Shown here one piece after another: positions 5,223 through 58,135 of a stretch of 64,000 bases of DNA. The position numbers were made by a program, and so were the translations under genes. Source of the stretch: a phage; sequence record PZ027503.1. One strand, given 5' to 3'. Position 1 is the first letter of the stretch, and the number at the start of each line of letters is the position of its first letter. Below the pieces are notes generated by a model that saw nothing but the letters and a program-made list of their open reading frames with translations, was not told where the DNA came from and did no database searches.

Positions 5223-5276
5223 ATAGCACAATACTGGGAGGAGGTGAGTCCTCCCGTTCAAAACGAAGGAGAAAAT

Positions 5277-5687
5277 ATGTCATTAGTAAATACTACAACT
5301 TGGGCTACCGTAAGCATGTCTACTGTAATGTCTACCCCTATCTGGAAACTAGAATCAAATAAACACAATGGCAATATCCCACACGAGAAACAAAATGCTG
5401 TTATTAGAGCGTCGCTTGTAATGCTGGGTATGGCTGAAGATTCACACTATTCTGTTGAGCGTAATGTGAATATCCGAAGCAATAACGATAAGCGGGTAGT
5501 GTTTGCAAATACAACGCTTTTCACTTTCCCTGTTTCACCTAATTGTGGTTTTAAACGAATCTACCAAGAAAATGATATTTTTCATTTTGGTGATGAAGAA
5601 TTTACAGGTTGGGGTGCGTCACATATTAAGATGGATGATTTCGGTAACTCTTATGATCCTGCGAAAGCAGATGATACTAATCAATGA
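5277..5687 (+). CDS. hypothetical protein
   Basis: GAAGGAG RBS before ATG at 5277; 5' UTR hairpin GGGAGG/CCTCCC. Confidence 0.5.
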   Translation: MSLVNTTTWATVSMSTVMSTPIWKLESNKHNGNIPHEKQNAVIRASLVMLGMAEDSHYSVERNVNIRSNNDKRVVFANTTLFTFPVSPNCGFKRIYQENDIFHFGDEEFTGWGASHIKMDDFGNSYDPAKADDTNQ

Positions 5688-23229: not shown

Positions 23230-23244
23230 TGCCAGCATCTGAAC

Positions 23245-23276
23245 AAAGCCTCCTGTTTCAGGGGGCTTTTCTTTTA
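23245..23276 (+). terminator. intrinsic terminator
   Basis: AAAGCCTCC...GGGGGCTTT 9-bp stem (one G-U) followed by TCTTTTAT. Confidence 0.5.
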
Positions 23277-23287
23277 TAGGAGGGAAT

Positions 23288-44852: not shown

Positions 44853-44889
44853 AAAAAGAAAGGGCGCTTGGTGCGCCCTTGTTTTGTTG
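44853..44889. terminator. bidirectional terminator
   Basis: GGGCGC-ttggt-GCGCCC hairpin flanked by AAAAAGAAA and TTGTTTTGTTG. Confidence 0.5.
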
Positions 44890-44893: not shown

Positions 44894-45313
44894 TTATAAC
44901 GCTTCATAGATTGAGTAGATCCGGTTTGCCAGGTCATTACGAAAGCGGAATTTTTCATCACGTTTGATCATCAGATCCTTAAAACCGCATTCTTTCAGTG
45001 CTTCATTAACTTTACTGCGGCATACTTTCATATTGTCCTGCGCGTCACCAATAAACTTGTTACTATGATGCATTGCTTTGATCTCTTCTTCCAGGACCAG
45101 GGCAACTACACGGATCGGATCAAGCTGATACGCGGTAACATCCATGCGGCATTGTAAACGGCTTTTAACGTCTGCCACCGGATATACTGCAACCTCTTCC
45201 CCGTCAACGTTCACAATAACCAATTTACCATCGATTTCGAAGCCTTTAGCGGCGCTACCGTGACAAAAAGCGTTGTCGAAGGAGTAAGCTGGATTATTTG
45301 ATTTAATGTTCAT
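44894..45313 (-). CDS. hypothetical protein
   Basis: ORF in track; first gene of the GC-richer sub-region. Confidence 0.5.
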   Translation of the reverse strand: MNIKSNNPAYSFDNAFCHGSAAKGFEIDGKLVIVNVDGEEVAVYPVADVKSRLQCRMDVTAYQLDPIRVVALVLEEEIKAMHHSNKFIGDAQDNMKVCRSKVNEALKECGFKDLMIKRDEKFRFRNDLANRIYSIYEAL

Positions 45314-45453
45314 GGTGTTGTCCTTTGTTTCGTTTCGTTGTTTGCTGCCAGTGAGTTAAATATAATATAACGCCGATCCCCTGTCAATAGGGGATAGCGC
45401 ATTATTTACATTTCTTTACGTTAAAGGGCGCTTAGTGCGCCCCTTGTACAATC

Positions 45454-45822
45454 TTACTTTGTGCGGTTGTGAACGTTATCGCGTTCAACCATCAGGGCAA
45501 GGCGGATCAGTTGATCAGTTGTATCGCGTAAATTGTCGGGCCATGTTTTACTGTTCCAGCTATCCATGTTTGATTGTATATAGGTTTCAATGGCTTGATC
45601 CATATTATCAAACAAGTTTTCCTCCAGGCTCTCGGCTGTTTCACACTGGAAAGCATTAGCGACACTATTAATCAATAAGCAAGCCAGTAAATCAGCATTA
45701 CGCCAATTTTTACGGATAGTTTCATCTGTCAGATAACCAACGAGATTAACCTTTGCGCCAGTGGTTGACGTTGCGATCACTTCTTGTGCTTTTTCAAGTG
45801 CTTTAATTGCTGATTTGCTCAT
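45454..45822 (-). CDS. hypothetical protein
   Basis: Track ORF trimmed to ATG 45822 after AAAGAGGAAAA. Confidence 0.45.
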   Translation of the reverse strand: MSKSAIKALEKAQEVIATSTTGAKVNLVGYLTDETIRKNWRNADLLACLLINSVANAFQCETAESLEENLFDNMDQAIETYIQSNMDSWNSKTWPDNLRDTTDQLIRLALMVERDNVHNRTK

Positions 45823-46206
45823 TTTATTTTCCTCTTTGTGGGCTTGCTGTATTGCTCGCCCTACGTGATAAATAATAATGTAAGCGTGATCCGGTGTCAA
45901 TAGGTAGCATTGTAAAGATTTGATAGTTTATTCCTTTGATGTTTTGTTGTTTGATAGATGTTAGCTATCAATATATGGCGGGGTCGTCCGGTGATTATCT
46001 TCCCCTGCTCCCAGGTGCCGCCCGTTCAATAAGTATAACAAAAAACAGGACAAAAACAAGCCCTGTTTATTTATCTTAAAACCAGTTGCCAACCGTTTCC
46101 AATAGGTCACTGACTACCAGGACAACATTGATCAGCACATATTTAATCAGGAAGGGGATTAGCGCCAGCGCCGCTACTATGATCCCCATTGTCATGATTA
46201 CCTTTC

Positions 46207-46497
46207 TCATTGTTGGCGGTTTACGTAAGCTTTACCGTTTACGGTCATCTGTATGGCTTCAAGGTCTGGATCTTCCTTAAGGTCGCGTGCAAGCTCACCG
46301 CAGCGGATACCCTCGAATCCGTAGTATTCTGTTTCCCCGTCCTTAAAAGTTTTAGCGGCAAGGCATAGGCGATAATTAACGCCGATCCGGTTTACCGCGT
46401 TGATATCGGTTAACGCGATGGATTCAGGCAAATCATTAGCCATTACAGGCGCGTTAATACCAACAACCAGGGCAACTACTGCGATCATCTTTTTCAT
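46207..46497 (-). CDS. secreted protein with N-terminal signal peptide
   Basis: MKKMIAVVALVVGINAPVMA signal-like N-terminus; hairpin GGGGCGGTAACGCCCC in leader. Confidence 0.5.
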   Translation of the reverse strand: MKKMIAVVALVVGINAPVMANDLPESIALTDINAVNRIGVNYRLCLAAKTFKDGETEYYGFEGIRCGELARDLKEDPDLEAIQMTVNGKAYVNRQQ

Positions 46498-46552
46498 GCT
46501 TTCTAGCCTCTTCCTATTGCGTTTAATGGGGCGTTACCGCCCCGCTTATGGT

Positions 46553-46789
46553 TTATTGATTGATGTTATAATGAAAATTATTTTCTTCAATAGCTTTTAA
46601 AATAAAAGCCGTGATCGCTTTCGTGTCTACTTGTTCGAACGTATCGGAATAGCACCAATAATGATCATCCCCTACTTTCGGCGGGTAAACCTGGACAAGG
46701 AGATCGCCACCTGGTTGATCTATAAGCTCAACATGTAAGCCGGATGATTCAGCGGTTTTAACGGCGTTTAATACTGTTGCAATACTCAT
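46553..46789 (-). CDS. hypothetical protein
   Basis: ORF in track; AAAGGAA RBS; leader hairpin. Confidence 0.45.
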   Translation of the reverse strand: MSIATVLNAVKTAESSGLHVELIDQPGGDLLVQVYPPKVGDDHYWCYSDTFEQVDTKAITAFILKAIEENNFHYNINQ

Positions 46790-46833
46790 AATCTTTTCCT
46801 TTCTGATGTGGGGCGTTGCCGCCCCTTTGTTGA

Positions 46834-47133
46834 TTAGATCGCTGTTTCCAGTAGTTCGGCTAACGTCTTACCGCCTGATAGTTGGTCTAACGTTTGCTCT
46901 TCTGGCAAGAAATTAGCTGATATTAATCCGACTTGATTCCCTTTGTGCCAATTGGCTTGACGGATGATTCCATCCTTTAAAGATTTTACCGCCATTGTGC
47001 AACCGTCGCCAAATGATTCATTTTTATGATCCATTACTTCATAAGCGCCCAGCTTGCTGCTGTTAGGCACCATCAACGCGAATACATCACCAACAACCAG
47101 TTTTTCTACGGTAACAATAGCGATAGTTTCCAT
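46834..47133 (-). CDS. hypothetical protein
   Basis: ORF in track; GAGGAAAG RBS; leader hairpin. Confidence 0.5.
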   Translation of the reverse strand: METIAIVTVEKLVVGDVFALMVPNSSKLGAYEVMDHKNESFGDGCTMAVKSLKDGIIRQANWHKGNQVGLISANFLPEEQTLDQLSGGKTLAELLETAI

Positions 47134-47151
47134 TTTACTTTCCTCATTATC

Positions 47152-47169
47152 GGCGGCACCATTGCCGCC
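47152..47169 (-). promoter_or_regulatory. 5' leader stem-loop of promoter/stem-loop cassette
   Basis: GGCGGCA-atgg-TGCCGCC on the sense (minus) strand, no U-run, preceded by TTGATC/TATATT promoter-like elements. Confidence 0.5.
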
Positions 47170-47211
47170 CTACGCATTAAATATAAGTTATCTAAGAGAT
47201 TAGATCAAGGA

Positions 47212-47403
47212 TTATTTTGTAAAGATTACAGCTTCATCAAAATTTTCAACATAGTAAGCAAGCTCCTCATTTGCTGCAACCATTCCTAAAAGTTGGCTAT
47301 AAGATAAACCTTTGATCCCTTCCTCGTTGTTTAATGCTTCGATGATTTCATCAACGGGCGCAAAAAACATGTTATTCGATTCCAGGTAGGAGATGGTTTT
47401 CAT
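47212..47403 (-). CDS. hypothetical protein
   Basis: ORF in track. Confidence 0.45.
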   Translation of the reverse strand: MKTISYLESNNMFFAPVDEIIEALNNEEGIKGLSYSQLLGMVAANEELAYYVENFDEAVIFTK

Positions 47404-47424
47404 AATGTTTACCTTTTTCGGGGA

Positions 47425-47480
47425 GCGGCACCATTGCCGCCCTACGTGGTAAATATTAGCACACTGGCGATCTGTGTCAA
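47425..47480 (-). promoter_or_regulatory. promoter plus 5' stem-loop cassette
   Basis: TTGACA (plus tgtcaa 47475-47480), -10-like AT-rich hexamer, then GCGGCAATGGTGCCGC hairpin. Confidence 0.5.
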
Positions 47481-47486
47481 TACTTT

Positions 47487-47873
47487 TTATTCAATATAAA
47501 TCAAATTATCTTCACCAATGTAAGCCGACACGTTCGGCATAAACTTAGCTGCATTGGTTAGGCGGTTCGCCGTGTTAGTGGTGTATATTTCAGGGCGATC
47601 CCAAAAGCCTACGCCGTGACTGTTACGGGTAAAATGTAAATCATTCCCGATCTGGTTGGCTGTTGCGCCGTCGCTCATTGCCTCAGAGATAGCGGCAAGA
47701 TTAGCATTAATAAAGGCTGTTACATCCTGGGCGATCCGTTGATCCGCACTAGGAGAAAAATCATAATCGTCTAAGTTATCAATAAAATTACCTTCATAAT
47801 CCCTTGCTGATTCAGCAAAAATAAAGGCTTCTTTATAGCCGTTGATGATTTCAATAATGATTTCTGTTTTCAT
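47487..47873 (-). CDS. hypothetical protein
   Basis: ORF in track; ATGA overlap. Confidence 0.5.
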   Translation of the reverse strand: MKTEIIIEIINGYKEAFIFAESARDYEGNFIDNLDDYDFSPSADQRIAQDVTAFINANLAAISEAMSDGATANQIGNDLHFTRNSHGVGFWDRPEIYTTNTANRLTNAAKFMPNVSAYIGEDNLIYIE

Positions 47874-48085
47874 GCTGTACGCTCGACAATAATAATAGTT
47901 TGCGGGATCTCGTTTTCTACTACTAACAAGGCTTTTTTCTGTGTGATAGATATTTTAACACGTTGTAAAGTAGCGGTAAAATCTTTCATTTCATTATGCG
48001 CGGATTTAGTACAATGCCAGATCTCAGGTTTACCAACTTGCAAGCCGCGTAAAAATTCCGTTTTACCTGTCTTATTCGTGATCAT
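47870..48085 (-). CDS. hypothetical protein
   Basis: Track ORF trimmed to ATG 48085 after AAGGTGA. Confidence 0.45.
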   Translation of the reverse strand: MITNKTGKTEFLRGLQVGKPEIWHCTKSAHNEMKDFTATLQRVKISITQKKALLVVENEIPQTIIIVERTA

Positions 48086-48095
48086 TTGTTTCACC

Positions 48096-48200
48096 TTAAC
48101 CGATACCGTGGGAAGATAGGATCATATTAGCCATAGTTGCAACTACTCCAACCGATAACGCCAGGCCAACCACTGCAACCGTGAAAATTTTCTCTAACAT
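48096..48200 (-). CDS. small hydrophobic peptide (34 aa)
   Basis: Below track cutoff; GAGGG RBS; directly downstream of a cassette. Confidence 0.35.
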   Translation of the reverse strand: MLEKIFTVAVVGLALSVGVVATMANMILSSHGIG

Positions 48201-48218
48201 GATTCTACCCTCATTAAT

Positions 48219-48280
48219 GGGCGTTGCACCATTGCCCCGCCCTACGTAATACACTTTACCAGATAACAAACCATTGTCAA
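48219..48280 (-). promoter_or_regulatory. promoter plus 5' stem-loop cassette
   Basis: TTGACA at 48275-48280 (minus), nested hairpin GGGCG..GCA-ccat-TGC..CGCCC. Confidence 0.45.
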
Positions 48281-48338
48281 GGTTTATTTACTACATCTTT
48301 TAAGCTGTATTTTTAAAATACAGCTTTCAGGCTGTCAA

Positions 48339-48509
48339 TTACTCTTCATCGTCGCCGTTATAGTATTCAATGCCGTTTTCATCGGTTACGGTGATGTTAA
48401 CGCCACCGATAGCAACACGATCACGGGCAAACGTCATAGCTTCGTTTAAATCTTCAGACCAAAAAATATTGTGACCTTTGCGCGATACATAAAACATAGT
48501 TGGGATCAT
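48339..48509 (-). CDS. hypothetical protein
   Basis: Track ORF trimmed to ATG 48509; the longer N-terminus would translate the leader hairpin. Confidence 0.4.
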   Translation of the reverse strand: MIPTMFYVSRKGHNIFWSEDLNEAMTFARDRVAIGGVNITVTDENGIEYYNGDDEE

Positions 48510-48594
48510 GATTTGTTTCTCTTCTGTTGTGAGCGGTGGACCATTCCGCCGCTCTATGTAATAAACTTTACTACGTTGTTTGCCTACTGTCAAA

Positions 48595-48879
48595 TTATTT
48601 TTTAATGTTTTGCCCTACAAAATTGATCACTTCCTTAAGCTGTCTCTCTGTCATGATCGTACCTGGTAACTCTTCTTTAATTTCTTCCGGTAAATAAATA
48701 TTACCGCGCCAGGTTAACAAACAACCGTTTTGATCTTCGCAGATAGAATAAGAAAACATCCACTCGCAATCATTCTCAAGCTCCCAAAAACACAAAAAGT
48801 CTTCTTTCCCTAAGTTTTCAACGGTTAAACATAATCCGCGACGTGCTGCATAATTAGTTAGGCTTTTTGTGATTTTCAT
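48595..48879 (-). CDS. hypothetical protein
   Basis: Track ORF trimmed to ATG 48879; track start at 48912 lies inside the hairpin loop. Confidence 0.45.
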   Translation of the reverse strand: MKITKSLTNYAARRGLCLTVENLGKEDFLCFWELENDCEWMFSYSICEDQNGCLLTWRGNIYLPEEIKEELPGTIMTERQLKEVINFVGQNIKK

Positions 48880-48959
48880 GATTTTTCTCTCTTCTGTTGT
48901 GAGCGGCACCATTGCCGCCCTACAAGATACATATTATCAGACTACGCGGACTTGTCAAA

Positions 48960-49070
48960 CTATTTTTTCTTTTTCTTTGCTTCCAACCGTCTAAGGTTAC
49001 GGCTTGACTTATTGCGCAAGGCGCTTAGATCGTCGTACCCTTTCCATGCTTGCATATCTTTCGGATTCAT
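48960..49070 (-). CDS. small basic protein (36 aa)
   Basis: AAGGGGGA RBS before ATG 49070; the longer track ORF would overlap the upstream gene by 150 nt. Confidence 0.35.
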   Translation of the reverse strand: MNPKDMQAWKGYDDLSALRNKSSRNLRRLEAKKKKK

Positions 49071-49080
49071 GTTATCCCCC

Positions 49081-49359
49081 TTAACGATTATAAACATTAT
49101 GGATGGCTTCAAAGGCAAGATGACCATAAGCCGCCAAATCGGGATTGATCCAAGCGTTATCCAACATCGTTTCAAGGACTGTGGAATCATCGTATAAAGC
49201 ATCATAGAAATCTGCACGGATGATCGTTTCAATGTCGTCCGGTGTTAGTTTGTCGTTCAACTTGCACACTGTTTCAACGTCAACACCAATTTTCCAATTT
49301 TGTAAATTAGTGGTTAACATTGTTTTCATTTCTTCGGTTGTTAATTTAACGATGGTCAT
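49081..49359 (-). CDS. hypothetical protein
   Basis: ORF in track; cassette immediately upstream. Confidence 0.5.
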   Translation of the reverse strand: MTIVKLTTEEMKTMLTTNLQNWKIGVDVETVCKLNDKLTPDDIETIIRADFYDALYDDSTVLETMLDNAWINPDLAAYGHLAFEAIHNVYNR

Positions 49360-49383
49360 GATTTTTTCTCTCTTCTGTTAGGC

Positions 49384-49400
49384 GGGGCGCTTGTCGCCCC
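49384..49400 (-). promoter_or_regulatory. 5' leader stem-loop (cassette variant)
   Basis: GGGGCG-acaag-CGCCCC with TTGACA about 40 nt upstream on minus strand. Confidence 0.45.
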
Positions 49401-49439
49401 TATGTGATACATCTTATCAGGTTGATTCAGCTTGTCAAA

Positions 49440-49601
49440 CTATTTGTTAGCCGGATTATATGCCAGGACCGCGCCGCTTGCTTTCACGCTTTCCGCTTCA
49501 TAGTTGCGCAGATCGTTTTCTGTAAGATTGAGCGCGATCACTTCCTCAATCTCAACACCAGCGGCAATGGCGATCTCTTTGATAATGTCTGCTGTTTTCA
49601 T
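49440..49601 (-). CDS. hypothetical protein
   Basis: Track ORF trimmed to ATG 49601. Confidence 0.4.
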   Translation of the reverse strand: MKTADIIKEIAIAAGVEIEEVIALNLTENDLRNYEAESVKASGAVLAYNPANK

Positions 49602-49611
49602 GGTATGTACC

Positions 49612-49731
49612 TTATAAGATGATTGATAAGATAGTGACAACGAAAGCGATTATACTGATGGCAAATGTCATCTTTTTACCTTCGGATACTGCCGGATTTT
49701 CTACCGTGTATTCTACTGTGTACTTGCTCAT
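49612..49731 (-). CDS. small hydrophobic peptide (39 aa)
   Basis: Below track cutoff; GAGAGGA RBS; C-terminal hydrophobic helix. Confidence 0.3.
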   Translation of the reverse strand: MSKYTVEYTVENPAVSEGKKMTFAISIIAFVVTILSIIL

Positions 49732-49829
49732 CGTGTAATCCTCTCGTTTGCTTTGGGAACTATTCCCGCCGCCCTATGAATTAAATATACACTATCTCAA
49801 AATGATTGCAAGCCTTTTTCTAAATTATT

Positions 49830-50114
49830 TTATGCAGTAAACAAACCATCATTTACAACGGCGGCGATGATCTCCCGTGCCATTGATTCAGGGAAAGGGG
49901 CGCTATAGTCCTGGCTTGTCTCATCGGTATCGGTGATCCAATGATAAGCTAACGAGTAAAAGCCTTTACTAACTGTTTTCAGTGAGATGATGATCACTCG
50001 GTCAAGCTTATTGGTGAATGTTGCCGTTAATGTGTCACCCTCCTGCGTCATGTTGGACAAGTAAGCGGGATCATTAATCAGGGAAAACATTAGCACGGTG
50101 TTAGCTTTACTCAT
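49830..50114 (-). CDS. hypothetical protein
   Basis: Track ORF trimmed to ATG 50114 after GAGGA. Confidence 0.45.
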   Translation of the reverse strand: MSKANTVLMFSLINDPAYLSNMTQEGDTLTATFTNKLDRVIIISLKTVSKGFYSLAYHWITDTDETSQDYSAPFPESMAREIIAAVVNDGLFTA

Positions 50115-50186
50115 GATTGCATCCTCAAAGGGGGCGCGGCACCATTGCCGCCCTACACGATAACTATAACACAATATAAAACAGGA

Positions 50187-50393
50187 TCAACCTTTATTTT
50201 TCCACGGTGTCAGCTTGTTAATCATTGGTGATAAATAGCGTTTACCAACGTAAAACAGCACGCCAACTGATGCAACGGCGGCGACCTCATGCATAGCCGA
50301 CGGGAAACGGGTATCATAATAAGATCCAATAATAGCAATAGCGGCAACGGCTGCAACGTCGATAATGATTTTTTCTTGTTTTGCGGTGATCAT
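50187..50393 (-). CDS. small membrane protein (two hydrophobic segments)
   Basis: IIIDVAAVAAIAIIG and VAAVASVGVLFYVG segments. Confidence 0.45.
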   Translation of the reverse strand: MITAKQEKIIIDVAAVAAIAIIGSYYDTRFPSAMHEVAAVASVGVLFYVGKRYLSPMINKLTPWKNKG

Positions 50394-50478
50394 AATATTT
50401 ACCTTTTTGTATGGTGGGGAACTATTCCCCGCCTGATGTAATACAGTTTAACAGGTCCGGTTATGGTGTCAACCACTT

Positions 50479-50664
50479 TTAAAGATATTTTATGTTAATG
50501 ATGTTTTCAGGTTTTACCTTGTTATGATGTGCATCAACATAGATCAAACCATCGTCAGAAAAGCCCAGGATCACGCCCTGCGCAATAAAACCGTATTCGT
50601 CACGGTAACGCACGGCTATTTTTAATGTTGCGCTGTAGGCTGTTTTAAGCTCGTTTAAAGTCAT
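50479..50664 (-). CDS. hypothetical protein
   Basis: ORF in track; GAGGA RBS. Confidence 0.45.
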   Translation of the reverse strand: MTLNELKTAYSATLKIAVRYRDEYGFIAQGVILGFSDDGLIYVDAHHNKVKPENIINIKYL

Positions 50665-50685
50665 TTTTGTTTATCCTCTACATGT

Positions 50686-50711
50686 AAAAAGAAAGGGCGC
50701 TTGGTGCGCCC
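50686..50711 (-). terminator. intrinsic terminator (minus strand)
   Basis: GGGCGC-accaa-GCGCCC followed by TTTCTTTTT on minus strand. Confidence 0.55.
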
Positions 50712-50719
50712 TTGTTATG

Positions 50720-50866
50720 TTAATCCTCTAAATCCATCCAATTATATTTGTCACTCTTCCCGCGCTTTGTTTTATTGCGCTTGTCGCCTTTGCGGATCAC
50801 TTCCTCGTTCCAGGCCTTGCGGATCTTGGAAGATTGAATTTTTTCTGCGCGATTAGATGTATTCAT
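50720..50866 (-). CDS. small basic protein (48 aa)
   Basis: Below track cutoff; AAAGAGGAAA RBS. Confidence 0.35.
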   Translation of the reverse strand: MNTSNRAEKIQSSKIRKAWNEEVIRKGDKRNKTKRGKSDKYNWMDLED

Positions 50867-50945
50867 TTTGTTTCCTCTTTATATGAGCGGCACTATTGCC
50901 GCTATATTGTTAATTTAAACTGTTTTGTAAAATTGTCAAGGTTTA

Positions 50946-51299
50946 TCATTCATAAGAGCAAGCAAGGATCACGCCTGCAATATAAAGCCAATAATTTTCC
51001 CTTTCTCGTTGGATTTTATCATCGCTGCTATTCTCTTTAATGTATCCCCAGGATGTTAACAACCGATCTACTTCCCAATACTCGAAAGCTATATTAATAT
51101 TTGACGGTAAACCTTGTAACCATGATGCTATTGCTCTGATAATGTTATGATCGTAACGTTTTTGATTATCGGTGTACCAATATTCAGATTTAAAACAGCG
51201 CATCAATTCCGCGATCTTCTCTTTCTCTTCTGTGATGCCATACTCGCTATAATCAATTGAGGCCAGAATATAAAGTTTAATTGCATTTTGTGCTTTCAT
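50946..51299 (-). CDS. hypothetical protein
   Basis: ORF in track; cassette upstream. Confidence 0.5.
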   Translation of the reverse strand: MKAQNAIKLYILASIDYSEYGITEEKEKIAELMRCFKSEYWYTDNQKRYDHNIIRAIASWLQGLPSNINIAFEYWEVDRLLTSWGYIKENSSDDKIQRERENYWLYIAGVILACSYE

Positions 51300-51319
51300 G
51301 GTGTCTCTCTTCTGTTGTT

Positions 51320-51337
51320 GGCGGCACCATTGCCGCC
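51320..51337 (-). promoter_or_regulatory. 5' leader stem-loop of cassette
   Basis: GGCGGCA-atgg-TGCCGCC. Confidence 0.5.
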
Positions 51338-51376
51338 CTATGTGTTACATCTTACCGGATTTTTAAAACTTGTCAA

Positions 51377-51598
51377 TCATTTTTCTACTATCATTTGATA
51401 CCCTGTTTCCAGGTTAGTAAACACCGTGATCCCGTCCTGGCGTTCACTCATTAGCATACAAGGCGCTAACATCCTTTCTACTGCCTTGCACTCATTGTAA
51501 ACGGCGGTTATGTCTCCTGCGGCCTTGTCTTCTGTGGTGAATGTATCGTTTACGTAAACCTGACCAGCGACAACGGCGACAATAGCGAAAGTGATCAT
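51377..51598 (-). CDS. hypothetical protein
   Basis: ORF in track; N-terminus MITFA shared with next small ORF. Confidence 0.45.
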   Translation of the reverse strand: MITFAIVAVVAGQVYVNDTFTTEDKAAGDITAVYNECKAVERMLAPCMLMSERQDGITVFTNLETGYQMIVEK

Positions 51599-51665
51599 GG
51601 TGTTTCCTTGTTAGTAGTGGTTTCTCTTCTCTATAGCGCCCATTGTAAGGCGCTATAACGAAAAG

Positions 51666-51839
51666 TCAACGATTATTTTTAAGGCTTAAAGTACCTAACT
51701 TGTCAGCATGACGCAGACCAGGGAAGATCCATTTGCCTGATTCATCTTTTACAGGTGCTTTAAACGTAGCGCCCAGGTTGGCGGCGTTAATTTTACGGGC
51801 AACGTTGCGAGCGGCTTCACGGGTAGCGAAAGTGATCAT
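51666..51839 (-). CDS. small protein (57 aa)
   Basis: Below track cutoff; begins MITFA like neighbouring gene. Confidence 0.3.
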   Translation of the reverse strand: MITFATREAARNVARKINAANLGATFKAPVKDESGKWIFPGLRHADKLGTLSLKNNR

Positions 51840-51931
51840 GGTGTTTTCCTCTTCTCTTTGTTAGGCGGTGGACCATTCCGCCGCCTTGATGTAATACAGT
51901 TTACTTTATTTTTGCAGTATTGCAAGCGGTT

Positions 51932-52144
51932 TTATGAAATAATCGTCAAAGTAAAATTGTAATCACCTGATTGATACAATACTTTATCACCGAACGTTCC
52001 AACACGTTTAACATTGCAATATATACCCATAACACTTTTTACATCTTTGATATTCTTCACGCCTGTAATATCTTTATTAAAATGATCGTGATCAGAAAAT
52101 AAAACTTGACTTGCATTTTTTAACAGTGTGCGGATATTAGCCAT
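51932..52144 (-). CDS. hypothetical protein
   Basis: ORF in track; cassette upstream. Confidence 0.45.
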   Translation of the reverse strand: MANIRTLLKNASQVLFSDHDHFNKDITGVKNIKDVKSVMGIYCNVKRVGTFGDKVLYQSGDYNFTLTIIS

Positions 52145-52234
52145 CGTAATAATCTCTCTTCTGTTGTGAGCGGCACCATTGCCGCCCTACGTAATATAGT
52201 TTACTCTTTTTCTTTCCCGTGTCAACAATCTTTT

Positions 52235-52462
52235 TCAGATTAATTCATCCAGGCATAACAGGCGATCAACGTTGAGATCGGTTAGGCTGATGGTTGGCAC
52301 CTGGTAGGATTCGATGTACTCGACGCTTGCATATTCCCCAAAATTAGCAATAGCCCACTTATTCAAGATCTCACATACATCATTAATCTTTTTGTTTGTT
52401 ACGACTGCAATAACCTGGGAAGTGCCAACGGTGCCGGATACGCGAACAATATTGATAGCCAT
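52235..52462 (-). CDS. hypothetical protein
   Basis: ORF in track; N-terminus MAINI shared with 52882 gene. Confidence 0.45.
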   Translation of the reverse strand: MAINIVRVSGTVGTSQVIAVVTNKKINDVCEILNKWAIANFGEYASVEYIESYQVPTISLTDLNVDRLLCLDELI

Positions 52463-52552
52463 AATCTTTAATCTCTCTGTTTTGGCGGGAAACCACTTCC
52501 CGCCCTATGTGATACATCTTACACTAATTTTAAACGTTGTCAACTGTTTTTA

Positions 52553-52792
52553 TTACATTCCAACCATCGCGGCACGGATCGCAGTAGTGCTATATTTGAA
52601 ACCGTCTGGCGTTTTATCTTGTCCAGTTTGTTCCAGAAAAAGCATCATATCCCGCGCCGCATCATTACGATTAGCATTAGCGTTAATAAAATCTTGGGCC
52701 AACCGGTATAACGATTCATCGTTATTAATCCAAAGGCTTACATTCCAATGAGTTTTGTTTTTGTGACCGTTGTACATTTTAGATTTAGCCAT
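52553..52792 (-). CDS. hypothetical protein
   Basis: ORF in track. Confidence 0.45.
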   Translation of the reverse strand: MAKSKMYNGHKNKTHWNVSLWINNDESLYRLAQDFINANANRNDAARDMMLFLEQTGQDKTPDGFKYSTTAIRAAMVGM

Positions 52793-52881
52793 GATTTTTC
52801 TCTCTTTTTCAGTGAGGCGGGAAGTGTTCCCGCTCTCTATGTAATACAGTTTACTCTTTTTATTCGTGCTGTCAATGCTTT

Positions 52882-53247
52882 TTATAAATCTTTTTTACGT
52901 TTTACATCGCTCGCATGACTGTATACAGTGATCCCATTGTCACGGCAAAAACGGGAAAGGTAGGCATAATTTGAAAACTCTTTACCTTCCAGGTTGATAA
53001 CCTTGCTAAACTCTTCTAGGGCAACGGTATCAAAATGATCACCATAGCCATATTGAAACGGAACGTTAACCACCTCGATCAGTTTACCGCCGATCTCAAC
53101 GTCAACCATTAAAGAGAAATATGTGTTACCGTAGGACCGTTGAAACCAGCGACGGGCGCTAATGTGCACCGCTTCAATGCTGGATAATTCAATTTTAGCC
53201 GTGTTAGCCAGGGTAGCATAAGCGGAAACATTGATATTAATAGCCAT
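52882..53247 (-). CDS. hypothetical protein
   Basis: ORF in track. Confidence 0.5.
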   Translation of the reverse strand: MAININVSAYATLANTAKIELSSIEAVHISARRWFQRSYGNTYFSLMVDVEIGGKLIEVVNVPFQYGYGDHFDTVALEEFSKVINLEGKEFSNYAYLSRFCRDNGITVYSHASDVKRKKDL

Positions 53248-53344
53248 GATGATAATCTCTCTTTTTGGTTAGTGGGAAGTATTCCCGATAAAAGTTATTA
53301 TGCTTATACTATCACTCATTGTCAATAGTATAAGACTAAAACTT

Positions 53345-53524
53345 TTAACGATAATCGTTATAGGCTTTATTGACCTGGCGAATGTAACATTCGAAAGCAA
53401 GATCAATGTATTCGTATTCACGCACATAATCACCATAGGTCACTACATACATTTTTAAAGTTTCCTCATAAGCCAGGAGGATCGAATCTAAACCTATAAT
53501 CTCAGTTTTTGCAATGATAGCCAT
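53345..53524 (-). CDS. small protein (59 aa)
   Basis: Below track cutoff; begins MAII; cassette directly upstream. Confidence 0.35.
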   Translation of the reverse strand: MAIIAKTEIIGLDSILLAYEETLKMYVVTYGDYVREYEYIDLAFECYIRQVNKAYNDYR

Positions 53525-53544
53525 GATGTTAACCTTTTATTGTT

Positions 53545-53602
53545 GGCGGCACCATTGCCGCCCTACGTGATAAACTATACCAGAAGTTTAAACAGTGTCA
53601 AC
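53545..53602 (-). promoter_or_regulatory. promoter plus 5' stem-loop cassette (best-resolved copy)
   Basis: Minus strand: TTGACA (53602-53597), 17-bp spacer, TATAGT (53579-53574), 11 nt, GGCGGCA-atgg-TGCCGCC (53562-53545). Confidence 0.55.
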
Positions 53603-53607
53603 CGTTT

Positions 53608-53970
53608 TTATTCGTAAATTTTACCGCTTTCGGCCCATACCATAACGCGGCGCATACTATCCCAAGTGTTTTGATCCAGGTTTAAGCCGTGCAACTCTTC
53701 GGTACTTCCCAGACCAGGTACCGCTTTGTTGTAAGTCGCATATAAGCGCCCTTGATACTCATACGCCAGAGTAAGATCCGTTTGAATCATCTTTTTAAGC
53801 ATAGCATTAAGCATCATATTAGCGGCATGTTGATCACGTTTTAGCGGTAACATATCAATAAGGGCGCGATAAGCTGAAACATGGATATCAACCGTTTCAC
53901 GTGGTAAATTTTTCATATCATCGCGGAAAGATACCAGATTAAATATGATAGTATTGATTTGCTTGCTCAT
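53608..53970 (-). CDS. hypothetical protein
   Basis: ORF in track. Confidence 0.5.
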   Translation of the reverse strand: MSKQINTIIFNLVSFRDDMKNLPRETVDIHVSAYRALIDMLPLKRDQHAANMMLNAMLKKMIQTDLTLAYEYQGRLYATYNKAVPGLGSTEELHGLNLDQNTWDSMRRVMVWAESGKIYE

Positions 53971-54185
53971 TGTGTTACCCTTTTTTGTTTTGGCGGGGAA
54001 GTATTCCGCCGCCCTATGTGATACATCTTATCAGATTAAAAAACGTTGTCAAGAATATTTTTAGAAAATAATATCCGCTACTACAACCCAAAATGGAACG
54101 GCTAGAATGATAGCGTTAATCGTTCCAACCGTCAAGCTATTTTCTTTATTAATCATTGTAAGCCTCTTGCATAATTTCACTATGA

Positions 54186-54201
54186 GCGGCACCATTGCCG
54201 C
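54186..54201 (-). promoter_or_regulatory. 5' leader stem-loop of cassette
   Basis: GCGGCA-atgg-TGCCGC. Confidence 0.45.
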
Positions 54202-54238
54202 CCTACGTGGTAAATATTATGCCAGTGGCGGCGATATG

Positions 54239-54805
54239 TCAAAGACTATTTTCAAAGTTTTCTAGTGCGATCCTTTTTTCTTCCTCTGTCGGCTGATAAT
54301 CAGGAAAAGCATCAACACACAACAACGGCGGGATCTCTTCGTACTCTTCCTCTTCCGTTGTCTCCTCGTCTTCCTCCTGGGCTATGGCTGCAATTTTGGC
54401 TAATTTTCTTTCGGCTTGAATCAATTTACCATCAAGTACGTTTTTTGCCATGTTGTAAGCGGTCCAGGTGATGCGCTTACTTTCCAACGCTTCATCAAGC
54501 GCCGCTATCTTGCTGGGGTATTCATCCAGGACACGAAAAGCCGGATCAATTTTGTACAAAGGATTATCTTTCGCGCCGTCGCTTGCATCTTCCGCACTGG
54601 ATAAATCAGCGTTACCATTTGCCAGCCAGCCAGGGCGCACATAACGCGCTTTTACGTTGCCGTTACTACGTGCTAATCTGTTACCTATTTGCTCACCGCT
54701 ATATCCCGTGGATTCATCGATAAGATGATCGGGAATGATGCGCGGATCATCTGCTTCATGTTTTACCCAAGACTGGATCACATATTCGCGGCCCATATTA
54801 ACCAC
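54239..54805 (-). CDS. hypothetical acidic protein
   Basis: ORF in track, 188 aa with Glu-rich segment. Confidence 0.5.
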   Translation of the reverse strand: MVNMGREYVIQSWVKHEADDPRIIPDHLIDESTGYSGEQIGNRLARSNGNVKARYVRPGWLANGNADLSSAEDASDGAKDNPLYKIDPAFRVLDEYPSKIAALDEALESKRITWTAYNMAKNVLDGKLIQAERKLAKIAAIAQEEDEETTEEEEYEEIPPLLCVDAFPDYQPTEEEKRIALENFENSL

Positions 54806-55055
54806 CTTTTTTCAACAATTGGCATACTTTAAAAAGACTTGCTGAATCCTTGCAAGGGTAGAAAGATGTACGATAATCACGTACGCCAACCTTGCGGATC
54901 TCGATGTTCTCGCATGTTGTTTGATCAAAGATATTTATTTCATCACGCCCCCTTATATAAACATAGTGGGGATGTATTAACGCATATTTTGCTAATCTGT
55001 AAAAAGCGTTATCTTTGAACGCGATCACGTGACCTTTTAATTTGATGTAAAACAT
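54798..55055 (-). CDS. hypothetical protein
   Basis: ORF in track; cassette upstream. Confidence 0.45.
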   Translation of the reverse strand: MFYIKLKGHVIAFKDNAFYRLAKYALIHPHYVYIRGRDEINIFDQTTCENIEIRKVGVRDYRTSFYPCKDSASLFKVCQLLKKGG

Positions 55056-55131
55056 TCTACCACCTTACAAATAGCGGGAACTATTCCCGCTTTATGTAAC
55101 ATATTAACAAATTATTCGTTAATGTCAAGCC

Positions 55132-55404
55132 TTAAAGCAAAAACGCTACATCTTGCGCTTTTAGTGTAGTATCAACCATTTTCGGGCTTTTATAATCAAC
55201 AAAGCGCGCGGTTTTTTCAATAGCGAAACCGAGATAATCTTGCTTGTTGAAATTACACTCTTTCTTAAATGTTTCCCGTGCAATGGCAATCGCTGCGTCC
55301 AGGGATAAACGCCCGTCAATATTGATATTAGCGAAAGATCCGCCACCGCTCATAGGTTTACCAGTTGTGCCAGCTACGATCATTGTTGCGCTATATGATG
55401 CCAT
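55132..55404 (-). CDS. hypothetical protein
   Basis: ORF in track; cassette upstream. Confidence 0.45.
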   Translation of the reverse strand: MASYSATMIVAGTTGKPMSGGGSFANINIDGRLSLDAAIAIARETFKKECNFNKQDYLGFAIEKTARFVDYKSPKMVDTTLKAQDVAFLL

Positions 55405-55494
55405 GATGATAATCTCTCTTCTGTTACGAGCGGGAAACCACTTCCCGCCCTATGTGATACATCTTATCAGGTTGTTGTTTGTTGTCAATACTTT

Positions 55495-55692
55495 TTATTC
55501 TATCCCTGCAATTTGATTAACGCGCTTGCATTTTGTAGCGTGCTGGTCTTCTGTAATGACTCCCATTTCTAACAGGGAATCAATGAAAGATAAAACCGTT
55601 TCATGATCATCCTGGGGATGACTGAACTCAGTAAAACCGTTTACCACGACGCTGATTTGTCCTGCTTTCGCCACAATGTGCAATGTTGCCAT
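55495..55692 (-). CDS. hypothetical protein
   Basis: ORF in track; last gene of the cassette array. Confidence 0.45.
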   Translation of the reverse strand: MATLHIVAKAGQISVVVNGFTEFSHPQDDHETVLSFIDSLLEMGVITEDQHATKCKRVNQIAGIE

Positions 55693-55891
55693 GATTTTAA
55701 CTCCAGGTGATGAATGATGTTTTTTGTTGGTGGACGGTGGATTATGGAGATCCTCACCTTTGCCCGTCCTGCATTGCGCCCCTCCTGTTGTTTATTGTCG
55801 TTGTGCCGCGCCCCCCTCGACAAGATGAATACTACGCCACCAGGTGAGGAACGTCAACCACTTTTTCAATCTTTTTTATTTTCTTTTTTGC

Positions 55892-57038: not shown

Positions 57039-57581
57039 TCACAAATATCGTCTTTGCGGTATTTTGTCTGGGAAAAGTATTTCGATCAGTTTATTATGAT
57101 ATTTACCTAAAAGATTCTGCCCTTTCCAGGTGGCAGGGTTTAGCACCCCTGGTTCATACATCCCCATTCCAATTCCGTAAACCTTATCGTAGGGGCTTGC
57201 TTCAACAAACGTTTTGTATTGGTAAAGGTGTAAGTCTGCATACAAATCTGGATTCTGTACATATTTCAAGCATAAACCTCGCATAACAATACGCTCACGG
57301 TTCTCTTCCCATACGTTGTTATCAAAATCCGACACTGCCCTACCCATACGTTTGTAATAAGCTTGGATCTTCTCATCTTTCCGTATCAAACTATGAGTCA
57401 GAATAGCCTGTGCAGTGTTGTGATCATTAAAAAGCAAAGCTTTACGCCACATCATGTATTGTTCGACACAATTAAATGTCTGATTGTAACCTGGTTCGGT
57501 TTCTGTAAAGGGTGCAATATACCAATTACTAAAAACATCTTTATGTGAAAAGAAGAATACATAATCATCAGTTATTCGCAT
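57039..57581 (-). CDS. NADAR-domain protein (YbiA-like, DUF1768)
   Basis: FFFS...FSNW, VEQYMMWRKALLF, KRMGR, VEASPYDKVYGIGMG, NLLGK follow the YbiA/NADAR pattern. Confidence 0.75.
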   Translation of the reverse strand: MRITDDYVFFFSHKDVFSNWYIAPFTETEPGYNQTFNCVEQYMMWRKALLFNDHNTAQAILTHSLIRKDEKIQAYYKRMGRAVSDFDNNVWEENRERIVMRGLCLKYVQNPDLYADLHLYQYKTFVEASPYDKVYGIGMGMYEPGVLNPATWKGQNLLGKYHNKLIEILFPDKIPQRRYL

Positions 57582-57769: not shown

Positions 57770-58135
57770 TTAGTCCATCCACCAGTAGCCATAAACTGCG
57801 TCTGCGTCGATGAGTTTGTGTTTGTTGTTTCGCATGTAGTCTAAGATAAGTAGACGTTTATTGTATCTGGAGAGATTATGACCCTCTTTTCCGCCATAGT
57901 CAAAATATTTTGCAAGATCTTTGCACTCAAACAAAATTAGTTCGGGAGTTTCTTCACACTGGTCTGTCTGGTACACTTGACGAATGATCATGTATACATC
58001 ATCGTCTTCCGCTAAATGCTCTACTGGTCCACATCCAGCAGGAACAAATTCATAGTCCCATCTGATCAGATGTTTCTCTACTGCTTCAAAGAAGTCCATT
58101 CTTTCGTTGCGCATAATTTGAACGTCAACTAACAT
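57770..58135 (-). CDS. hypothetical protein
   Basis: ORF in track; AGGAGGAAAC RBS. Confidence 0.5.
   Translation of the reverse strand: MLVDVQIMRNERMDFFEAVEKHLIRWDYEFVPAGCGPVEHLAEDDDVYMIIRQVYQTDQCEETPELILFECKDLAKYFDYGGKEGHNLSRYNKRLLILDYMRNNKHKLIDADAVYGYWWMD

Follow-up and report, generated by a model that had tools for sequence, protein, structure and literature searches.

Promoter, hairpin and leader cassettes in front of most small genes of one block in a phAPEC8-like coliphage

The 64,000-nucleotide stretch of DNA analysed here (sequence record PZ027503.1, hereafter the window) comes from a Phapecoctavirus, a phAPEC8-like coliphage (myovirus), and carries a block of small genes repeatedly preceded by promoter-like hexamers and a GC hairpin. 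The question raised by this locus is whether the hairpin belongs to the gene that follows it, ends the one before it, or serves some other purpose. The repeat is already on record, as the GenBank entry of phAPEC8 (JX561091) labels the hairpin 20-mers 'putative promoter determined with PHIRE'.

Module anatomy and distribution

Of the 34 small minus-strand genes between 45.8 and 55.5 kb, 22-23 were found to be headed by a single module (Table 1). The order is TTGACA, 16-17 bp of spacer, a -10 box (TAAGAT, TAATAT, TAAACT or TATAGT in the array) and, some 10 nt further on, a GC hairpin, followed by an A/C-purine leader that runs to the ATG. In a strict scan for TTGAnn or TTGCAA followed after 16-17 nt by TAnnnT, with a stem of five or more base pairs, four or more of them GC, beginning 5-16 nt past TAnnnT, the minus strand yielded 18 modules at 45.3-56.0 kb, where 200 dinucleotide shuffles gave 0.005 on average, and none in the remainder of the window. 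Covariance-model matches in the window were confined to 45832-55465, and in tuntematon, a close relative, no match came up in the other 89 kb. The count of more than 20 cassettes in the preliminary description holds when degenerate copies are included and not without them, and its statement that nearly every gene has a cassette is too strong, since the rest of the 34 genes are translationally coupled or follow a true terminator or a promoterless hairpin. All 16 of the hairpin positions it listed coincide with hairpins located here; those before genes 50866, 52792 and 53970, and degenerate ones before genes 53247, 49731 and 45822, are additional. For the ten largest proteins of the block the only matches are to PHROG families of unknown function, and no Pfam domains were found in them. 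A single isolated cassette precedes a TerC-like gene.

The intergenic gaps measure 67-98 nt, and in several cases the stop codon adjoins or overlaps the -35. The 20 nt 5' of the -35 have an AT content of 76%, compared with 61% in the window, and the -10 is extended (TG) in 10 of 23 cassettes. Of the promoter parse proposed previously, TTGACA and TATAGT were recovered, the spacer is 16-17 and not 17-18 bp, and the -10 'TATGTA' proved to be a wrong parse of TAAGAT-GTA. The leader CACAACAGAAGAGA, put forward as a general feature, does occur in cassettes but only in a subset. The shared N-termini MITFA and MAI-I/N were found as described, the sharing being limited to the first ~5 codons.

In 19 of the 23 cassettes the eighth nucleotide past the -10 is a purine (A or G), and the start site is predicted there, so that the hairpin would begin at about +4 of its own transcript; its earlier placement in the 5' leader depends on this prediction. 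No transcript-end mapping for this phage group was found in the searched literature, and both start site and RNA fold are accordingly predictions. The distance from the -10 to the hairpin is 8-15 nt with a mode of 10 (163 modules, 12 loci). In the same modules the 10 nt past the stem comprise 53% A and 14% T, and no more than two T occur in the first 8 nt in 140 of the 163, in agreement with the previously reported lack of a U-run, while the true terminators of the block carry a T-run. The cassette hairpins are not canonical terminators. At the first promoter of the array the window phage has a 122-nt structured leader (55706-55827) in place of the hairpin, and a canonical hairpin is kept there in phAPEC8, tuntematon and UP17.

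Table 1 Features of the block. Cassettes, promoter, terminators and promoterless hairpins are on the minus strand; junctions are those of gene gains and losses among relatives.
Feature	Coordinates	Sequence	Hairpin position	Remarks
First array promoter	55693..55857	TTGACG-N17-TAGTAT
Cassette, gene 55404	55405..55488	GGGCGGGAAG-tgg-TTTCCCGCTC	55450-55428	-35 TTGACA at 55488; TG-extended -10 TAAGAT at 55466; covariance-model match
Cassette, gene 55055	55056..55128	AGCGGGAA-tag-TTCCCGCT	55091-55073
Cassette, gene 54156	54157..54242	GGGCGGCA-atgg-TGCCGCTC	54203-54184	-35 overlaps TGA stop of upstream gene
Cassette, gene 53970	53971..54052	GGCGGCGGAATACTTCCCCGCC	54013-53992
Cassette, gene 53524	53525..53601	GGCGGCA-atgg-TGCCGCC	53562-53545
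Degenerate cassette, gene 53247	53248..53325	GGGAATACTTCCC	53286-53274	Weak hairpin
Cassette, gene 52792	52793..52875	GAGAGCGGGAA-cac-TTCCCGCCTC	52837-52814
Cassette, gene 52462	52463..52543	GGCGGGAAG-tgg-TTTCCCGCC	52504-52484
Cassette, gene 52144	52145..52225	GGGCGGCA-atgg-TGCCGCTC	52187-52168
Cassette, gene 51839	51840..51925	AGGCGGCGGAATGGTCCACCGCCT	51886-51863	-35 TTGCAA; C.A mismatch
Variant cassette, gene 51598	51599..51669	TATAGCGCC-ttacaat-GGGCGCTATA	51657-51632	Hairpin over -10
Cassette, gene 51299	51300..51376	GGCGGCA-atgg-TGCCGCC	51337-51320
Cassette, gene 50866	50867..50939	AGCGGCA-atag-TGCCGCT	50903-50886
Cassette, gene 50393	50394..50472	GGCGGGGAA-tag-TTCCCCACC	50433-50413
Cassette, gene 50114	50115..50190	GCGGCA-atgg-TGCCGC	50151-50136	-35 TTGATC
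Degenerate cassette, gene 49731	49732..49811		49772-49750	-35 TTGCAA; weak hairpin
Cassette, gene 49359	49360..49438	GGGGCG-acaag-CGCCCC	49400-49384
Cassette, gene 48879	48880..48958	GGGCGGCA-atgg-TGCCGCTC	48920-48901
Cassette, gene 48509	48510..48593	GAGCGGCGGAATGGTCCACCGCTC	48554-48531
Cassette, gene 48200	48201..48280	GGGCGGGGCAATGGTGCAACGCCC	48242-48219	Internal loop
Cassette, gene 47403	47404..47480	GGGCGGCA-atgg-TGCCGCTC	47442-47423
Cassette, gene 47133	47134..47208	GGCGGCA-atgg-TGCCGCC	47169-47152	-35 TTGATC
Degenerate cassette, gene 45822	45823..45900	GGGCGAGCAATACAGCAAGCCC	45861-45840
Canonical intrinsic terminator	50693..50713	AAGGGCGC-accaa-GCGCCCTT then TCTTTTT		Within array
Canonical bidirectional terminator	44860..44880			Just past low-coordinate end of block
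Promoterless intercistronic hairpin	46810..46825	GGGGCG-gcaa-CGCCCC
Promoterless intercistronic hairpin	46527..46544	GGGGCG-gtaa-CGCCCC		Possible half-cassette
Junction	47183/47392			62 bp overlapping cassette homology
Junction	51911/52155			59 bp overlapping cassette homology
Junction	53278/53517			38 bp overlapping cassette homology
Junction	47173/48903			21 bp homology inside two hairpins; 1.7 kb removed
Junction	45874/45857			18 bp overlapping cassette homology

Hairpin structure and covariation

The same module is present in Justusliebigvirus, Vequintavirus and Certrevirus phages, and the 12 loci contain 163 sense modules as compared with 12 antisense. Across copies and genera the stem is 5-10 bp, the loop 3-9 nt and the stem sequence widely different, with for example GGGCA/TGCCC, GGGCC/GGCCC, GGGAG/CTCCC and GGGGCAA/TTGCCCC in the FV3 and phiTE loci. 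As 44 distinct hairpins occupy the same offset in these genera, the comparison argues for a module in which structure, rather than a fixed sequence, is conserved. In the model-fitted alignment paired cells amount to 93.8%, and stem exchanges include CG to GC (9 sequences) and GC to AU (6 sequences). The observed covariation score was reached by none of 500 shuffles, with slid controls much lower, although these statistics overstate independence, the compared sequences being mutually related. At one position of the stem before the MITFA gene, phi92 has U-A and the window a C.A mismatch, and in PsgM04F the stem that corresponds to it, before gene 55404, has C-G. Loops vary freely (CAC, TAG, TAC; ATGG, ATAG), and the sense fold was more stable than the antisense one in 31 of the 44 distinct sequences. 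The compensatory and wobble changes in the alignment confirm the covarying stems anticipated in the preliminary description. In the coliphage copies the core GCGG/CCGC is invariant and the 5' flank RTAGGG nearly so; this conservation of GCGG/CCGC and TAGGG exceeds structural need and leaves room for a sequence-specific partner.

Gene gain, loss and hairpin exchange among relatives

Comparison of the window with eight relatives disclosed that hairpin types are swapped at orthologous genes. Gene 55404, with 90-100% identity in its coding sequence, is headed by up to five hairpin alleles, the phAPEC8 hairpin before gene 52462 is a chimera, and the position before gene 53247 has full hairpins in relatives and a weak one in the window. 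At least five gene gains or losses have their junctions in cassette homology (Table 1); gene 47403 and its cassette are missing in three relatives, and in two an extra gene is inserted at the cassette before gene 45822. The cassette-bounded gain and loss suggested beforehand was thus found, as was an exchange of hairpin types. The cassette makes up 18.7% of the sequence but holds 24 of 49 breakpoints, an excess partly expected of any intergenic DNA since breaks inside genes are selected against.

Role of the hairpin and of the cassette

The closest known kind of element is the PeSL of T4-type phages; its stem-loop, which serves as a terminator or attenuator, is placed immediately before the promoter, within the -35/-10 interval or across the -10 (PMC2839356, PMC4122927). 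In the window the promoter precedes the hairpin and the phage is not T4-like, so that the equation with PeSL made at the outset stands as an analogy and not as an identity, and the cassettes may be regarded as a variant of those known from T4-like phages; the cassette before gene 51598 (51669-51632), with its hairpin over the -10, has the RB49-type PeSL geometry. It is possible, if rather doubtful, that the hairpins are such terminators or attenuators, chiefly stopping or damping transcription from the upstream cassette and so leaving each gene to be expressed mostly from its own promoter, and that tight packing places them in the gene's own leader as a side effect. In a lacZ assay PeSL stem-loops that lack a classical U-run behaved as strong terminators, and one in RB49 (G-run, loop, C-run) lowered reporter expression to about the same degree as a strong terminator did (PMC2839356), so a missing U-run is compatible with attenuation. 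Moreover, with stops adjoining or overlapping the -35, the hairpin past the next promoter is the only possible 3'-end signal of the upstream gene, and both the RB49-like variant and the promoterless hairpins between genes would suit such a role. However, a terminator past the start site would abort the cassette's own transcripts too, the stems lack the T-run that canonical terminators of the block have where an end is evidently wanted, and the fixed offset from the -10 suggests a constraint linked to the start site.

It seems unlikely that the hairpin, together with its TAGGG flank, is recognised by a phage-encoded regulator, be it an RNA-binding protein or endonuclease by which all early mRNAs would be switched off or processed jointly, or a DNA-binding repressor with the palindrome over the start site as its operator. 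The unvarying core, the nearly invariant flank in coliphage copies, a palindrome at +4 to +22, which is a classical operator position, and a motif common to the whole early gene set would suit it, but variable stem length, loop length and sequence fit poorly to a dimeric DNA binder with fixed half-site spacing, FV3 and phiTE keep the architecture only and not the sequence, and G.U pairs and sense-strand stability favour RNA over duplex DNA. No candidate regulator was found, the neighbouring proteins having NADAR, CapR-domain and AAA domains. A dedicated hairpin-directed recombination or mobility, as for integron attC or the PeSL mini-circles detected in RB49 and phi1 (PMC2839356), with expression secondary, would account for the crossovers inside hairpins (e.g. 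the 21-bp overlap within two type-A hairpins), for the chimeric hairpin joined in the loop and for the inverted loop of the SKA64 locus. It is nevertheless quite improbable, as the neighbourhood of the array yielded no integrase or other recombinase and the 38-62 bp homology of several junctions runs past the hairpin into promoter, leader or first codons, which matches the prediction of ordinary homologous recombination. That the 20-mer RTAGGGCGGCAATGGTGCCG is itself a phage-specific promoter, as the phAPEC8 annotation has it, is scarcely credible: PHIRE detects merely repeated 20-mers, and every copy in the window lies at a fixed distance behind a sigma-70-type -35/-10, never alone. The motif is a GC palindrome lacking a -10-like element, and only 15-27 nt separate it from the ATG. 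Besides, phages of this group reportedly encode no RNA polymerase (PMC7344957, Certrevirus), and rV5 has host-type promoters throughout (PMC3606486).

The reading we prefer, with a probability of roughly 0.6, is that of promoter/5'-hairpin/leader cassettes whose hairpin is structural and generic and which also provide portable homology. The block would be an early, host-takeover-type module in which most small genes, whose functions are unknown, own a self-contained expression cassette, starting with an AT-rich stretch that adjoins or overlaps the upstream stop and continuing with a near-consensus sigma-70 promoter. The RNA would display the GC hairpin at about +4 to +25, then an unstructured A/C-purine leader, a Shine-Dalgarno sequence and the ATG. 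Promoter activity, start site and folding in vivo are what we infer, as is a stabilising or insulating role: at the 5' end of the own-promoter transcript the hairpin may delay decay that depends on RppH and RNase E and shield the ribosome-binding site from upstream context, and on transcripts reading through from upstream promoters, 3' of the preceding gene, it may act as an exonuclease barrier or weak attenuator. Indeed, a 5' hairpin is able to hinder RppH and to stabilise mRNA in E. coli (review PMC3997798, citing Emory 1992, Bouvet and Belasco 1992, Deana 2008). RppH and RNase E require a minimum of 2 unpaired nucleotides, with a preference for 3 or more, a pyrimidine at position 2 being only mildly unfavourable to RppH (PMC8833179); given the predicted start, about 3 nucleotides (R-U-A) are unpaired before the stem, so protection may be partial and is not guaranteed. 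Independently of hairpin function, the 45-90 bp of common cassette sequence would serve as portable homology, and recombination between cassettes would delete, insert and re-head genes with expression unbroken, which would account for the high variability of the block between close relatives.

Organisation and distribution of the block of small genes

The 10.4-kb region carrying the block of small minus-strand genes is 94-97% identical to the Phapecoctavirus genomes UP17, Mt1B1_P17 and tuntematon, and matched 274 phage records in total, the matched phages being myoviruses of the subfamily Stephanstirmvirinae, with genomes of about 150 kb, and kin of phAPEC8 and phi92. Thirty-four genes were delimited between 45313 and 55692, and are designated here by the window coordinate of their ATG. 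No tRNA gene was found in the window, and Rfam gave no match at the gathering score across its whole length; at E <=1 the sole match within 44.8-56.5 kb was at chance level (18.8 bits vs a cut-off of 37.8).

The preliminary description placed a module of promoter and hairpin ahead of nearly every small gene, in more than 20 copies. The copy number holds if degenerate copies are included, with 22-23 packed into 10 kb, and all 16 hairpin positions that it listed were correct, but the module precedes 22-23 of the 34 genes. Spacers ahead of module-bearing genes are uniform (67-98 nt), while genes devoid of a module are translationally coupled to the preceding one (spacer of at most 10 nt) or come after another element, a canonical terminator in the case of gene 50664 and a promoterless hairpin in that of genes 46789 and 46497. 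Scanned mechanically under strict criteria, the minus strand at 45.3-56.0 kb gave 18 modules, while 200 dinucleotide shuffles averaged 0.005; the scan returned none on the minus strand of the rest of the window and two, unrelated, on the plus strand. Matches to a covariance model of the cassette were confined in the window to 45832-55465, and the remaining 89 kb of tuntematon contained no match to the model. One solitary cassette belonging to this family (TTGACA-N16-TAAGAT ... GCGGGGAA-tag-TTCCCCGC) was seen in that phage at L012:15968, about 39.27 kb in its record, where it precedes the gene of a TerC-like membrane protein, distant from the array.

The stop codon of the upstream gene abuts or overlaps the −35 box. 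A-tracts are frequent right after this stop codon, and the A-rich DNA preceding the −35 box is 76% AT over 20 nt, compared with 61% for the window. TTGACA forms the −35 box of 18 of the 23 cassettes; 16-17 bp of non-conserved sequence separate the −35 box from a −10 box of the general form TAnnnT (TAAGAT, TAATAT, TAAACT or TATAGT), extended in ten of the 23; these promoters were the top matches of a generic promoter scan. A conserved (G/T)TAYCAC-R-TA follows, with a purine at the eighth nucleotide past the −10 box in 19 of 23 cassettes, which is likely the +1 position on this prediction. The GC hairpin (−11 to −16 kcal/mol) begins about 10 nt past the −10 box and is succeeded by an A-rich leader, often CACAACAGAAGAGAGA, in which the ATG lies 14-27 nt from the stem, the cassette ending in a Shine-Dalgarno sequence and the start codon. 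Across the 163 sense-strand modules of 12 loci, the hairpin starts 8-15 nt past the −10 box in 162 and at 6 nt in the remaining one. Since the conserved core is independent of the spacer, a recent plain duplication of the cassettes is ruled out.

The distribution across phages was taken from a search of INPHARED; one cassette, used as BLAST query, retrieved 152 phage records (Phapecoctavirus, Justusliebigvirus, Vequintavirus, Certrevirus and others). In phi92 the array adjoins the right terminal repeat. The ten largest proteins of the block matched only PHROGs of unknown function and no Pfam domain was found in them; scans of the array proteins and their neighbours with Pfam and PHROG disclosed no function for the array genes. 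The distribution of the cassette, its position in phi92 and the proteins devoid of Pfam domains fit an early, host-takeover-type module. The NADAR-domain protein encoded near the array may provide a link to anti-defence functions.

Several elements of the window depart from the common layout, and their coordinates are collected in the table together with those of the terminators and junctions. In the first cassette the hairpin is replaced by a structured leader of 122 nt, an allele that about 20 further phage records contain at full length; in phAPEC8, tuntematon and UP17 this position is occupied by a normal hairpin. The two promoterless intercistronic hairpins may be half-cassettes or RNA stability elements. 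An Acinetobacter-named record has the cassette and the 122-nt leader at 97.8% identity, and Campylobacter-, Pseudomonas- and Klebsiella-named records show 89-95% identity to the coliphage block; the host labels of all these records look doubtful.

Features of the window and junctions with related genomes (window coordinates; strand in brackets)
Coordinates	Feature	Sequence or overlap	Difference in relatives
5195-5280 (+)	Same design as the cassette, unrelated stem	Stop codon, TTGACT-N18-TAATAT, 10 nt, TGGGAGGA-ggtgag-TCCTCCCG, leader, ATG	
23201-23280 (+)	Near-consensus promoter; canonical terminator hairpin and T-run within 14 nt	TTGACA-N18-TATAGT	
44860-44880	Canonical terminator with T-run		
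45823-46075 (-)	Unusually long spacer (253 nt)	Terminator, then long imperfect GC-rich hairpin GGGCGGCACC...GACCCCGCC	200-524 bp extra sequence exactly at 46066-46068
45874/45857	Junction	18-bp overlap	Extra gene in tuntematon, ECO340P2
46043-46068	Canonical terminator with T-run		
46527-46544 (-)	Promoterless intercistronic hairpin, GNRA-type loop, no U-run	GGGGCG-GTAA-CGCCCC	
46810-46825 (-)	Promoterless intercistronic hairpin, GNRA-type loop, no U-run	GGGGCG-GCAA-CGCCCC	
47173/48903	Junction	21-bp overlap inside two identical hairpins	1.7 kb, six genes, missing in nieznany
47183/47392	Junction	62-bp overlap	Gene 47403 missing in tuntematon, ECO340P2, Ro121c4YLVW
50693-50713	Canonical terminator with T-run		
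51632-51669 (-)	Hairpin over the −10 box, geometry described for RB49-type PeSLs; outside the 163-module scan	TATAGCGCC-ttacaat-GGGCGCTATA	Insertion of an additional gene, about 310 bp, at 51605-51618
51911/52155	Junction	59-bp overlap	Gene 52144 missing in nieznany
53278/53517 and 53258/53517	Junctions	38- and 19-bp overlaps, leader and shared first codons	Gene 53524 missing in SKA64, ECO340P2
55706-55827 (-)	122-nt structured leader of the first cassette (promoter 55857)	Mini-ORF MQDGQR behind strong AGGAGG	
57039-57581 and 58129-59136 (-)	NADAR-domain protein (E 8e-36) and CapR homology domain protein, then AAA ATPase, beside the array		

Structure of the hairpin and its predicted place in the transcript

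No structure emerged when RNAalifold was run on 22 full cassettes aligned with MAFFT alone, a consequence of misaligned 3' arms where the hairpins differ in length; this approach was replaced by a covariance model built from 17 copies of equal geometry and by structure-aware scans. Across the window and five related loci the model gave 53 matches, which all fall on the gene-sense strand, and in the alignment fitted to it 93.8% of the cells pair, a value that drops to 33-68% in slid controls. Compensatory changes in the stem, as claimed from the window sequence, are indeed present: double changes occur at two pairs, CG to GC in nine sequences and GC to AU in six, and G.U is common at one stem pair. 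As the four core pairs GCGG/CCGC are invariant, the covariation among coliphages is modest.

Stronger evidence for structure comes from the breadth of distinct hairpins. A sequence-agnostic scan of the 12 loci counted 163 modules in sense and 12 in antisense orientation, with 44 distinct hairpins. Vequintavirus FV3 and Certrevirus phiTE display the same layout with unrelated stems (GGGCA/TGCCC, GGGCC/GGCCC, GGGAG/CTCCC and GGGGCAA/TTGCCCC), each followed by ACACAA. Ahead of the gene with the N-terminus MITFA, one stem position that pairs as U-A in phi92 is mismatched (C.A) in the window, and the equivalent stem ahead of gene 55404 in PsgM04F has C-G. Loops vary freely. A site for a dimeric DNA-binding protein is disfavoured by the variable length of both stem (5-10 bp) and loop (3-9 nt). 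The predicted RNA fold is more stable on the sense than on the antisense strand in 31 of the 44 distinct sequences, which weakly supports a role at the RNA level.

The question of whether the hairpins are terminators or leader elements was approached through the sequence that follows the stem. Over the 163 modules this tail is 53% A and 14% T, and 140 modules have at most two T in the 8 nt past the stem, in agreement with the earlier observation that no U-run is present. Given this A-rich, T-poor tail and the occurrence in the same block of terminators that do carry a T-run, the cassette hairpins, judged by their sequence against the established model of intrinsic termination, are not canonical intrinsic terminators. 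They are poor candidates for terminators of antisense transcription too, their plus-strand tail being only weakly T-rich. A sigma-70-dependent pause element, a CsrA site, an Hfq site and a lambda-operator-like site were each rejected for want of a consistent motif, the resemblance of TATCAC to the latter being coincidental, and the stems are too short for an RNase III site.

Counted from the predicted start, the hairpin would lie near nucleotide +4 or +5 of the RNA made from its cassette. In E. coli, a hairpin at the 5' end is able to stabilise mRNA and impedes RppH (PMC3997798), while RppH and RNase E need two unpaired nucleotides and prefer at least three (PMC8833179). The free 5' nucleotides, counted from a start site that is predicted only, number about three (R-U-A), and fewer are predicted where G+1 and U+2 can pair with ..AC past the stem. 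Three being borderline for these enzymes, a role of the hairpin as 5' stabiliser is plausible but not secure. Because nothing separates the stop codon from the −35 box, RNA reading through from the upstream gene necessarily carries the next hairpin on its 3' side, where the hairpin may have a further function as an exonuclease barrier or an attenuator. In the searched literature on Phapecoctavirus, Vequintavirinae and Stephanstirmvirinae, neither transcript-end maps nor descriptions of the cassette were found.

Junctions between related genomes

Comparison of the block by BLAST with seven relatives disclosed 25 distinct junctions. The cassette, which makes up 18.7% of the sequence, contains 24 of the 49 breakpoints (binomial p ~1.6e-6, for events that are not independent and with any intergenic DNA being favoured). 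More telling than this enrichment are the junctions at which cassette homology overlaps, by 18-62 bp, and they bear out the suggestion of gene gain and loss bounded by cassettes. Where orthologous genes share 90-100% identity over their first 100 nt, the hairpin type differs among phages: five hairpin alleles occur ahead of gene 55404 and four ahead of gene 52462, and the phAPEC8 hairpin at the latter is a chimera with the 5' half of one type and the 3' half of another. Such allele swaps and the chimeric hairpin indicate that the cassettes behave as exchangeable linkers.

At the ortholog of gene 52144 in SKA64 (L009) the loop is inverted, GGGCGGCA-CTAT-TGCCGCCC vs ...ATAG..., and a flip of the palindrome at the DNA level would produce this arrangement. 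No site-specific recombinase or integrase, as would be expected beside the hairpin sites of an integron-like array, was found in the annotated flanks or in Pfam scans of the neighbouring proteins. A more far-reaching proposal is that the hairpin with its TAGGG/GCGG core is a handle, either of a phage-wide early regulon, in which a phage factor would bind or cleave it and silence all early mRNAs together, or of a hairpin-directed recombination moving gene cassettes as units, in the manner of integrons or of the mini-circles of promoter-early stem-loop (PeSL) cassettes, in a second, unrelated group of large myoviruses; this is considered improbable.

Relation to known cassettes and promoter clusters

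The nearest described system is that of the PeSL cassettes of T4-type phages, reported for RB49/phi1, PST/T4 and nt-1/KVP40 (Arbiol et al. 2010, PMC2839356; Comeau et al. 2014, PMC4122927). In both systems an intergenic unit of about 80-100 bp is repeated, made up of an AT-rich stretch, a stable stem-loop, the boxes of a strong early promoter of sigma-70 type, and a Shine-Dalgarno sequence with its start codon. Both cluster in a plastic region with many small genes of unknown function; in both, the repeats delimit the indels that distinguish close relatives, and crossovers have been mapped in or beside the loop. The PeSL stem-loop lies between the −35 and −10 boxes, over the −10 box or immediately ahead of the promoter, and was described, and tested, as a terminator or attenuator (PMC2839356, PMC4122927), whereas here the hairpin is found about 10 nt past the −10 box, within its own transcript if the predicted start is correct, in all but one copy (51669-51632). 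In addition, the consensus of the stems found here (GGCGGCA, GCGGGAA) shows no relation to the stems of PeSL, and the phage belongs to the Stephanstirmvirinae, with relatives including Vequintavirinae, and is not T4-like. Circular cassette DNAs, the mini-circles, are a feature of PeSL. As the defining stem-loop position before or within the promoter, that is the order terminator then promoter, is not the one found here, the cassettes are not classed as PeSL and the equation of the two was abandoned; by analogy, they would work like PeSL in their evolutionary role. The earlier interpretation was largely right apart from this equation and from the leader function, which rests on the predicted start.

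Further likenesses concern parts of the cassette. The 5' stabiliser stem-loops of E. coli, which impede RppH and 5'-end-dependent attack by RNase E, also place a short stable hairpin at the extreme 5' end (here predicted), followed by an unstructured leader and the ribosome-binding site, but the known ones (ompA and papA leaders, engineered examples; PMC3997798) belong to single genes whereas here the element is part of a repeated mobile unit with a predicted start. Clusters of sigma-70-like early promoters have been described in rV5-like phages (rV5, PMC3606486; Certrevirus CB7, PMC7344957), and these, together with the promoter features of the phAPEC8 record, cover the same genomic region and the same promoters as the cassettes, with no mention of a hairpin, of a composite cassette or of a role in recombination: the word 'hairpin' is absent from the CB7 paper (PMC7344957), and 'stem-loop' appears once in the rV5 paper (PMC3606486), in the legend of a terminator figure. 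The GenBank record of phAPEC8 gives the hairpin 20-mer as 'putative promoter determined with PHIRE' and annotates a MEME promoter for the sigma-70 part; thus, the repeat had been seen previously and read differently.

Lambdoid morons and the SPO1 host-takeover module are likewise small accessory or early genes, each with its own transcription signals. In SPO1 a large set of small early genes is packed beside a genome end, together with multiple strong early promoters; in phi92 the equivalent array adjoins the right terminal repeat. In neither the morons nor the SPO1 module is a conserved flanking repeat known as shuffling vehicle, nor a leader hairpin.

This reading, if true, opens no new class of mechanism. 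It would correct a current database entry that labels the hairpin as a promoter, and would provide about 20 natural, compact and near-standardised expression cassettes, each with a promoter, a leader hairpin and a ribosome-binding site open to testing and reuse. The rV5/phAPEC8 group comprises many candidates for therapy, and its early genes are almost entirely uncharacterised; shuffling at the cassettes would account for the differences in gene content of the block between phages that are 95% identical. Regulatory repeats doubling as recombination linkers would then not be peculiar to T4-like phages, and would have arisen in the rV5/phAPEC8 group with a different internal layout.
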